Origin: Escherichia coli
Lineage (GTDB): Bacteria > Pseudomonadota > Gammaproteobacteria > Enterobacterales > Enterobacteriaceae
Assembly: GCF_003334255.1 (NCBI RefSeq)
Contig: NZ_QOWU01000161.1
Strand: one strand, 5' to 3'
DNA: 1,341 nt
The first letter of the stretch is position 1, and every line of letters starts with the position of its first letter. Positions 205 to 636 of this stretch are shown piece after piece. Made by a program: the position numbers and the translations under genes. Under the pieces are notes generated by a model. It ran no database searches, was not told the origin of the DNA, and saw only the letters and a program-made list of their open reading frames with translations.

Positions 205-636
205 TCACAGATGATTCTCCAGACGAAGGCCCAGAACACCGGCAATCTCTTCCAGCACCTTGCGCTCTTCCGGCTCTATTTCGCCGTCTGCTTCGGCAAT
301 GGCCACCGCCACATCCAGCACGTCTTCCGCTTCACGCGTATCGTGTTTCACATCCTCGATCTCACGTAACGCCGCACGACGACCAATTTTAAAGTTCGTA
401 TCCAGCTGACCGATAATGGTTGCGCTAATCGCATTAATTTCTGACGTAAACGCGGACAAGGTGGGCTGGTTACGTAATACCTGTTCGATCTTCGCTTTCT
501 CGGAAGCCTCACATTCACCATCGGCATAAGCCACCAGGTATGCAGCGTTAATCACTGCTTGTGCCAGATCGCGTTTTTCAAACTTTTTAATTTCCGCAGC
601 CGCTCTGCGGGTTTTCTTTTTGAAGATTCCAAGCAT
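205..636 (-). CDS. TerB-family (tellurite-resistance TerB-like) domain protein, 143 aa
   Basis: ORF-track frame 205..708, with the start placed at the internal ATG (636..634) because it has a good SD; the GTG at 708 has none. Stop is TGA 207..205. The protein is helical in character with two acidic repeats of the form A-x-A/Y-ADGE-(x)n-E (YADGECEASEKAKIE and EADGEIEPEERKVLEEIAG) and a basic N-terminus (KKKTRR), which matches the TerB fold as I recall it. It contains the rare codons AGA (codon 11) and ATA (codon 120). Confidence 0.7.
   Translation of the reverse strand: MLGIFKKKTRRAAAEIKKFEKRDLAQAVINAAYLVAYADGECEASEKAKIEQVLRNQPTLSAFTSEINAISATIIGQLDTNFKIGRRAALREIEDVKHDTREAEDVLDVAVAIAEADGEIEPEERKVLEEIAGVLGLRLENHL

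Follow-up and report, generated by a model that had tools for sequence, protein, structure and literature searches.

We analysed a 1,341-nucleotide (nt) stretch of Escherichia coli DNA (contig NZ_QOWU01000161.1 of assembly GCF_003334255.1), referred to below as the window, and find in it tciAB, a two-gene module of a lambdoid prophage that encodes TciA, a 143-amino-acid (aa) stand-alone TerB-fold protein, and TciB, a 54-aa DUF3927 protein, behind a conserved structured 5′ leader. That TciA is a genuine TerB-fold protein, and that the module has this identity and architecture, we regard as practically certain. What does such a module do? As our best explanation we tentatively propose that TciA and TciB constitute a membrane-associated module of the lytic phase.

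tciA runs from position 636 to 205 (ATG 636-634, TGA 207-205) on the minus strand, as do all features of the window. The initial annotation, which placed an open reading frame (ORF) at 205-636 and read its 143-aa product as a TerB-fold protein, was exact on the first point, stop codon included, and is confirmed on the second by profile, structure and motif alike. The protein matches PHROG 632 (“tellurite resistance”; E=6.5e-69) with residues 1-143 on profile positions 1-143, the Pfam TerB family PF05099 over residues 26-138 (i-Evalue 2.2e-12), and the solved Klebsiella pneumoniae TerB (PDB 2JXU) with residues 14-137 on 20-144 (E=4.4e-8). An AlphaFold2 model computed with 100 diverse homologues is all-helical, with a predicted local distance difference test score of 93.4 and a predicted template-modelling score of 0.85. 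TciA contains two acidic ADGExExxE motifs (D39, G40 and E46; D117, G118 and E124), and D39, G40, E46, G118 and E124 are each at least 90% conserved among the 100 diverse homologues; the two D-G-x5-E acidic motifs of TerB have been proposed to form a metal site. TciA thus resembles the TerB of the terZABCDEF operon (2JXU) in size, in its single-domain all-helical fold, in its paired acidic motifs, and in similarity along the whole protein. It is acidic (isoelectric point 5.1), has no transmembrane or hydrophobic segment, and carries a basic N-terminal helix, MLGIFKKKTRRAAAEIKKFEKR.

A Shine-Dalgarno (SD) sequence, AAAGGAA (650-644), sits 7 nt upstream of the ATG at 636. A 167-aa reading from a GTG at 708 was not used, since PHROG 632 aligns end to end with the shorter protein and all homologues start with M-[LF]-G. 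With a ratio of nonsynonymous to synonymous substitution rates (dN/dS) of 0.025 at a dS of 0.43 across 33 alleles, tciA is under strong purifying selection, and these data rule out a decayed, non-functional gene. Against NCBIfam, TciA and TciB gave only sub-threshold matches to DjlA, YmfL and anti-sigma-E models. The weak similarity to DjlA joins TciA 87-138 to DjlA positions 112-164, and DjlA likewise has a TerB-like domain located at the membrane; however, TciA lacks both the J domain and the N-terminal anchor, and its score is 28.6 bits against a family cutoff of 162.

The second gene, tciB (208 to 44), begins with a GTG that overlaps the tciA TGA by 4 nt (GTGA), and its product matches Pfam DUF3927 (E=1.7e-18) and PHROG 1470 (E=3.1e-24). 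Hydropathy analysis shows two hydrophobic helices in TciB, which is positively charged at either end and has a conserved pair of acidic residues (VDF...LADG). Its gene has a dN/dS of about 0.25, and the protein is more variable than TciA (68-98% versus 96-100% identity among close lambdoid loci). The gene pair supposed in the initial annotation is widely kept: of 194 loci drawn from phages, viral contigs and species-representative genomes, 183 have a DUF3927-type ORF directly 3′ of tciA, and in 178 of these 183 its start overlaps the tciA stop, by 4 nt in 145 loci and by 1 nt in 33. The scan with a 12-sequence alignment reached close relatives only, the SP-058 query yielded two viral loci, and the genome-contig scan, for which one peptide pattern served as query, yielded 23 loci.

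The pairing is preserved in both allele classes of lambdoid tciA, between which identity is only ~42%, and also in phage P1, in the N4-like SP-058 and L171, in jumbo Machinavirus phages, and in a Bilophila metagenome-assembled genome (MAG). The P1 proteins share 42% (TciA, along the entire protein) and 50% (TciB, likewise of 54 aa) identity with ours; the gene order is the same, tciB starts at the tciA stop, tRNA genes adjoin, and the proteins belong to PHROG 632 and 1470. Unlike the module described here, that of P1 includes tciC and is devoid of the structured leader. No ORF follows tciB in our locus, where a match to the small RNA (sRNA) STnc100 and then an esterase gene come next, and tciC may be P1-specific. 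What recurs is the coupling of a soluble TerB protein with a membrane protein of very small size. In a few database entries the Pfam domains TerB and DUF3927 occur in a single chain (P0004, 197 aa; P0063, 170 aa); given the 4-nt overlap between tciA and tciB, such chains may reflect frameshift mutation or sequencing error and not natural fusion. In loci from Pseudomonas and Paracoccus (L006, L009, L181, L189), the overlapping position of TciB is occupied by an unrelated protein of 67-73 aa (PHROG 27356, function unknown), in which a single hydrophobic helix at the N terminus is combined with a conserved C..WYGYQTERE..GC domain.

The leader of tciAB (637 to 762) spans ~125 nt from the upstream terminator to the tciA ATG and is better conserved than the coding sequence. 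It is present in 148 of 193 loci, distributed over Escherichia, Franconibacter, Pantoea, Buttiauxella, Leclercia and Citrobacter, and it fronts both lambdoid tciA allele classes. From 24 variants, RNAalifold predicts a P0 hairpin (762-747) and a long helix H2 (5′ strand 725-716, 3′ strand 663-655), in which CCUUUC-GGGGUGAGC pairs with GGCUCACCC...AAAGG. Because H2 continues into the CCUUU:AAAGG pairing, the best-supported fold is predicted to sequester the SD sequence by means of an anti-SD, CCUUU, at 731-727. The fold that we tested adds two helices to P0 and H2, the inner H4 and the crossing H1 (CCACAGAG/CUCUGUGG; 5′ strand 739-732, 3′ strand 691-684); an apical hairpin lies at 705-695. In this fold 95.9% of cells are paired, the covariation score exceeds that of 499 of 500 shuffles, and five double-change cells are observed where 1.2 are expected. 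The minimum-free-energy fold of the window sequence leaves the SD free, and its covariation score is reached by 103 of 500 shuffles; it is possible only as an alternative state. H1 crosses H2, and the two helices represent either a pseudoknot or alternative folds.

Across leader classes the helices stay paired while their sequences change. The comparison was made with an alignment-free helix search; in a 17-sequence MAFFT alignment, P0 and H1 are out of register. P0 occurs as GCGCC/GGCGC, ACGCC/GGCGU, CUGUC/GACAG, ACAUC/GAUGU and UGCGC/GCGCA; H1 occurs as CCACAGAG/CUCUGUGG, CCGUAGAG/CUCUACGG, CCGCAGA/UCUGCGG, CCACAA/UUGUGG, CACAGAA/UUCUGUG and CUCAGAA/UUCUGAG; and H2 occurs as GGGUGAGCC/GGCUCACCC, UGUGAGCCUG/CAGGCUCACG and GAUGA-CCUUG/CAAGG-UCAUC. 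The anti-SD/SD pair is found in every leader class. By BLAST, the leader core also lies upstream of terB in jumbo Machinavirus phages (73-77% identity) and recurs in a phage whose annotated host is Actinobacillus and in Klebsiella phages. A covariance model recovers every copy found by BLAST, and it detects none in the Stx2a locus discussed below, in P1, in the N4-like and Pseudomonas phages, or in the Vibrio phage.

Paralogous copies of the leader stand away from tciA, again in late regions, at L058 8132-8284, L201 5920-6071, L143 6737-6883, L157 7393-7519 and L183 7009-7138. The genes behind them encode an antirepressor, Ant (PHROG 524), a KilA-N-type regulator (PHROG 129), an HNH endonuclease (PHROG 3593), and two small ORFs, which suggests that the leader is a control element shared by accessory genes. 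The 4,227 covariance models of Rfam gave no hit on the leader, nor on the paralogous copies, with E allowed up to 0.1 or 1. The evidence that the leader is a real structured element is good, and that for its exact fold is moderate. We also entertain, with some reserve, the idea that it belongs to an undescribed family of phage cis-regulatory RNAs that gate the translation of accessory genes in late transcripts, the parts of the family being P0 with a conserved loop, H1, a long H2 extending into the anti-SD:SD pairing, and a variable apical hairpin. In lambdoid phages the genes so gated would be tciAB, ant, the KilA-N gene and the HNH endonuclease gene; in jumbo phages, tciAB. If confirmed, the leader would be a new phage RNA element exerting a post-transcriptional control common to several late-region cargo genes.

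A GGA-containing motif follows directly on the 5′ strand of H2 (window 716-705) and recurs in homologous leaders (for example UUACGGGAUGG in L056); a second GGA lies within the SD sequence itself. The consensus obtained for CsrA by systematic evolution of ligands by exponential enrichment is RUACARGGAUGU. The leader motif resembles this consensus and could be a candidate CsrA site. Binding of CsrA to the GGA motifs, like processing of the long leader helix by RNase III, is offered here as an idea only.

When and from what transcript would tciAB be expressed? A promoter-like site overlaps the end of the Q antiterminator gene (L001 22732-22704) and is followed after ~55 nt by a strong terminator-like hairpin (L001 22649-22635), an arrangement that by its sequence looks like the expected pR′-tR′ layout. 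The cassette has terminator-like hairpins on both sides, one after the tRNAs (window 792-775) and one after the STnc100 match downstream of tciB. A strict consensus scan of the 170-nt spacer between the post-tRNA terminator and the tciA ATG returned no sigma-70 promoter, a scan that weak or non-sigma-70 types can escape. In P1, tciABC lies on the same strand as ban, between the C1-operated ban promoters and ban, so that its pair stands behind a C1-controlled promoter whereas ours stands in a Q-dependent late region. The module also occurs in N4-like and jumbo Machinavirus phages, which we take to be strictly lytic, with no lysogenic state. Phage PMBT3 is described as virulent in the paper that reports it. 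Given the late-region context, the lack of a detected promoter of its own, the C1-controlled position in P1, and the occurrence in lytic phages, we infer that tciAB is likely made during lytic growth and not in the resting lysogen.

We propose the following mechanism. In lambdoid phages tciAB would be carried on the Q-antiterminated late transcript, in P1 it would be expressed from the C1-repressed ban promoter, and its translation would be gated by the leader where one is present. TciB, together with TciA's own basic N-terminal helix, would hold TciA at the inner membrane face; that the two proteins form a membrane-bound complex strikes us as probable, if somewhat less so than lytic expression. 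There, the acidic motifs of TciA could sense or buffer a divalent cation or the state of the membrane, and the complex would stabilise both envelope and membrane potential in the infected cell until programmed lysis, guarding it against a premature collapse that pore-forming colicins, superinfecting phage, abortive-infection pores of the host or a holin triggered too early might otherwise cause. This specific protective role, drawn by analogy, we hold to be doubtful. The analogy comes from published work in which TerB is membrane-associated and also associates with TerC, the ter operon confers phage inhibition and resistance to pore-forming colicins, and the TerB proteins of the Bunzi, Shango and Dionysus systems are proposed to be components of membrane surveillance.

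Several observations weigh against this proposal. The ter phenotypes on which the protective role is modelled need TerC and TerD, both absent here. In a CRISPR interference screen of P1, tciA, tciB and tciC all scored as non-essential. The TciB of jumbo phages lacks both conserved acidic residues, and the Vibrio and Marinomonas homologues of TciA have no small membrane partner. Finally, read-through from the tRNA promoter may reach tciAB in the lysogen, and a strict consensus scan can miss weak or non-sigma-70 promoters.

Could the pair instead be a defence moron of lysogenic conversion, expressed by the resident prophage to shield its lysogen in the manner of Bunzi, Shango, Dionysus or the ter Phi phenotype? 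Validated defence systems do include TerB domains, and one of them, Dionysus (DinA, the TerB-like DinB and the pore-forming DinC), joins a TerB-like protein with a membrane pore-former. Moreover, the cassette occupies a prophage cargo slot that otherwise holds stx, and the tci region is variable among P1-like elements. Like Dionysus, Bunzi and Shango, whose link to phage infection is proven, tciAB combines a TerB-type protein with a membrane protein, and by analogy it may work as they do, with TerB at the membrane beside a membrane partner. However, those are chromosomal systems of three genes or of several domains, and their partners are large, whereas TciB is a two-helix peptide where Dionysus has a pore-forming toxin of four transmembrane segments. 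The partner genes of Bunzi, Shango and Dionysus are absent from the locus, whose only conserved neighbour is TciB, and tciAB is not a member of any of the three. The initial annotation had offered a defence, superinfection-exclusion or stress-tolerance function, and PADLOC v2 returned no meaningful match in favour of the first: its best hit was PDC-S48 at E=0.003, TciA matched no model of Bunzi or Shango, the two of these systems that the library covers, and nothing usable was found for TciB. Further evidence against a shield for the lysogen is the failure to find a promoter between the upstream terminator and the tciA ATG, the retention of the pair in N4-like and jumbo phages, presumably strictly lytic and with no lysogen to protect, and its place behind a repressor-controlled promoter in P1. 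Occurrence in lytic phages and in the P1 ban-promoter stretch argues against a role limited to protecting lysogens, and we consider the defence moron unlikely; the broader suggestion of a defence, superinfection-exclusion or stress-tolerance role is neither supported nor excluded.

A different possibility, to which we give a little less credence still, is that the module is a weapon of the phage against its host, a counter-defence decoy in which a TciB-tethered phage TerB would disturb the membrane-surveillance immunity of the host, whether of the TerB/TerC type or another, for instance by acting as a dominant-negative mimic. In favour of this, many virulent phages have a member of the family, the resemblance of TciA to cellular TerB extends along the entire protein, and the very strong purifying selection on tciA would fit a need to keep mimicking a host protein. 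According to the literature, host ter operons inhibit phages and deletion of terC enlarges plaques. A pure decoy, however, would not necessarily need the acidic motifs, and these are fully conserved. Moreover, many hosts of the phages that carry tciAB are not known to have a ter operon.

The database name points to yet another function, resistance to tellurite or to metals. TerB does belong to the ter operon, which is reported to be induced by Zn, Mn and Te. Yet the name was given by homology only, and TciA differs from the TerB of the ter operon in its company: the partners TerC, TerD, TerE, TerZ, TerA and TerF are missing, the sole conserved partner is a 54-aa DUF3927 hairpin, and in the 41 kb around tciA no ter partner (terC, terD, terE or terZ included) is annotated, all neighbours being phage genes. 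Because these partners are absent and, according to the literature, several ter genes are required for resistance, TerC-TerD being the minimal unit, “tellurite resistance” is unlikely to describe what TciA does; a resistance determinant is very improbable, and resistance from tciAB alone is not expected.

In several distinct phage types tciAB lies within ~0.7 kb of tRNA genes, and the tRNA sets differ: Ile-Arg-Arg, Asn-Thr-Gly or Met-Lys-Arg in lambdoids, Asn and Thr before the pair with Ile after it in P1, Trp and Cys in jumbo Machinavirus, Met-Ser-Gln in the Bilophila MAG, and Ile in a Paracoccus MAG (the tally draws on window 807-1058 and on loci L003, L005, L179, L189 and L198-L200). A function tied to these genes, whether the protection or use of tRNAs or a need for them in translating the pair, is the least probable reading of all, given that no tRNA lies within 4 kb in many lineages, among them N4-like phages, Pseudomonas phages and most prophages outside E. 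coli, and that stx occupies the same tRNA-adjacent slot, so that the proximity of tciAB to tRNA genes is more simply explained by a shared accessory locus or by recombination at conserved tRNA sequence. As a supply for rare codons in tciAB the tRNAs were rejected, for tciA uses one AGA and one AUA codon only.

Returning to a lytic-phase, membrane-associated TciA-TciB module, what could be learned from it? The function of TerB domains is a long-standing open question despite the ter operon, DjlA and at least three validated anti-phage systems. tciAB is the smallest conserved TerB context that we have seen, one TerB protein and one 54-residue membrane peptide, and it is tractable as a model, being under strong purifying selection, carried by ~15% of complete E. 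coli genomes, and present in the genetically easy phage P1. If the leader does gate translation in the way entertained above, TciAB would be a leader-gated minimal system of TerB plus membrane peptide and would provide a simple genetic handle on TerB domains.

What other cargo does this position accept? In the Stx2a phage AP012536, the same methylase gene and ileZ-argN-argO are followed by stx2A-stx2B and then by the same esterase, holin and endolysin genes. In a pairwise BLAST of the window with AP012536, homology is lost at window 758 and regained at window 7, and from these break points it follows that an exchangeable 750-bp cargo cassette of leader, tciA and tciB (8 to 757) stands here in place of the 1,328-bp stx2AB cassette, between homologous flanks. 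In agreement with the break points, 250-odd Stx phage records match window 758-1341 only. The two loci share the upstream flank of methylase, ileZ-argN-argO and terminator, as well as the downstream flank of an STnc100-like region and the nanS-p esterase; they differ in that the encoded proteins are unrelated and the Stx2a locus has no detectable leader. The initial annotation, which placed tciA in the slot directly after the tRNA cluster where toxin cargo sits in Stx phages, is borne out by this comparison, and its assignment to the late region of a phage holds as well, with Q upstream, esterase, holin and lysozyme genes downstream, and a complete-looking lambdoid prophage around it in place of a chromosomal housekeeping locus. 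The stx slot of lambdoid phages is thereby shown to be a general exchange point for small cassettes. The counterpart of the STnc100 region also follows stx2B in the Stx2a phage, at ~70% identity.

As a gene-finding result tciAB is ordinary, since the gene was already annotated. The module is a known, widely annotated and experimentally uncharacterised phage module: the word “uncharacterised” in the initial annotation was apt with regard to experiment, and less so with regard to the family, which has been named tciA/tciB since the annotation of the P1 genome, has PHROG entries 632 and 1470, and is annotated by PGAP. The product of tciA is RefSeq WP_001672427.1, the PGAP names are “tellurite resistance TerB family protein” and “DUF3927 family protein”, and in phage JLK-2012 the pair is annotated tciA/tciB. 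Our literature searches on DUF3927, TciA/TciB and the lambdoid late-operon leader found no functional study; other papers mention phage terB without experiments, and in a 2026 preprint TerB is listed among the conserved neighbours of the sRNAs PasA and PasC.

At a query coverage of at least 80%, the pair is present in 803 of 5,426 complete E. coli genomes, and part of it is matched in 2,189. The excess of partial over whole matches is explained by loci with a truncated DUF3927 ORF: in many E. coli prophages only such an ORF (38-43 aa) lies beside the tRNAs, with no tciA annotated. In L195 (4024-4276) the gap measures only ~60 nt, too short for tciA, which has been deleted; in L196 (3986-4693) it is roughly 500 nt, with no tciA annotated. 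These loci look like decayed versions of the cassette. TciA-like proteins occur in 131 phage records, among them Vibrio, Escherichia, Erwinia, Klebsiella, Pseudomonas and Salmonella phages; the family is small, with 520 of 1.84 billion representative clusters matching at E<=1e-3.

A copy with 100% identity to the window is found in a prophage of E. coli JE86-ST05 and in three other genomes. The JE86-ST05 prophage adjoins yccA, and its 41-kb neighbourhood holds, before Q, an integrase, an exonuclease, dicB, repressor-region genes and replication genes; from Q onward the order is Q, a small ORF, the methylase, three tRNAs, tciA and the DUF3927 gene, followed by a SASA/nanS-p-type esterase, holin, lysozyme, an Rz-type lysis protein, terminase, and head and tail genes. 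The full-length STnc100 match (143 bits; L001 19773-19978, minus strand) falls just outside the window on its left, where it immediately follows tciB and precedes the nanS-p-type esterase gene.

Within the window, the 3′ end of a DNA adenine methyltransferase gene (1341 to 1099), which runs on past the window, precedes a promoter-like site of sigma-70 type (TTGAAG-17-TATTAT, 1096 to 1068; a consensus match) just upstream of the tRNA cluster. The cluster (807 to 1058), directly upstream of tciA on the same strand, is an ileZ-argN-argO-like trio of tRNA-Ile2 with anticodon CAU (1058 to 983; annotated tRNA-Ile, labelled Met by ARAGORN), tRNA-Arg(UCG) (973 to 897) and tRNA-Arg(UCU) (883 to 807). 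An intrinsic-terminator-like hairpin with a U tract (GGCUCGC-UUUU-GCGGGCC, 792 to 765) follows the cluster and is kept at the upstream edge of the cassette. Since the promoter-like site and this hairpin, both of them consensus matches, bracket the tRNA cluster, the cluster may be an independent transcription unit inside the late region.

The spacer between the tRNA genes and the cassette takes up insertions in other loci. An IS66-family element of 2.7 kb is found there in two of them (L025 and L039, 2291-5001), and an insert of ~600 bp in fifteen (L015 and similar, 4236-5001), which in L015 contains two small ORFs of 74 and 76 aa. In the loci with such insertions, the terminator and leader remain attached to tciA.

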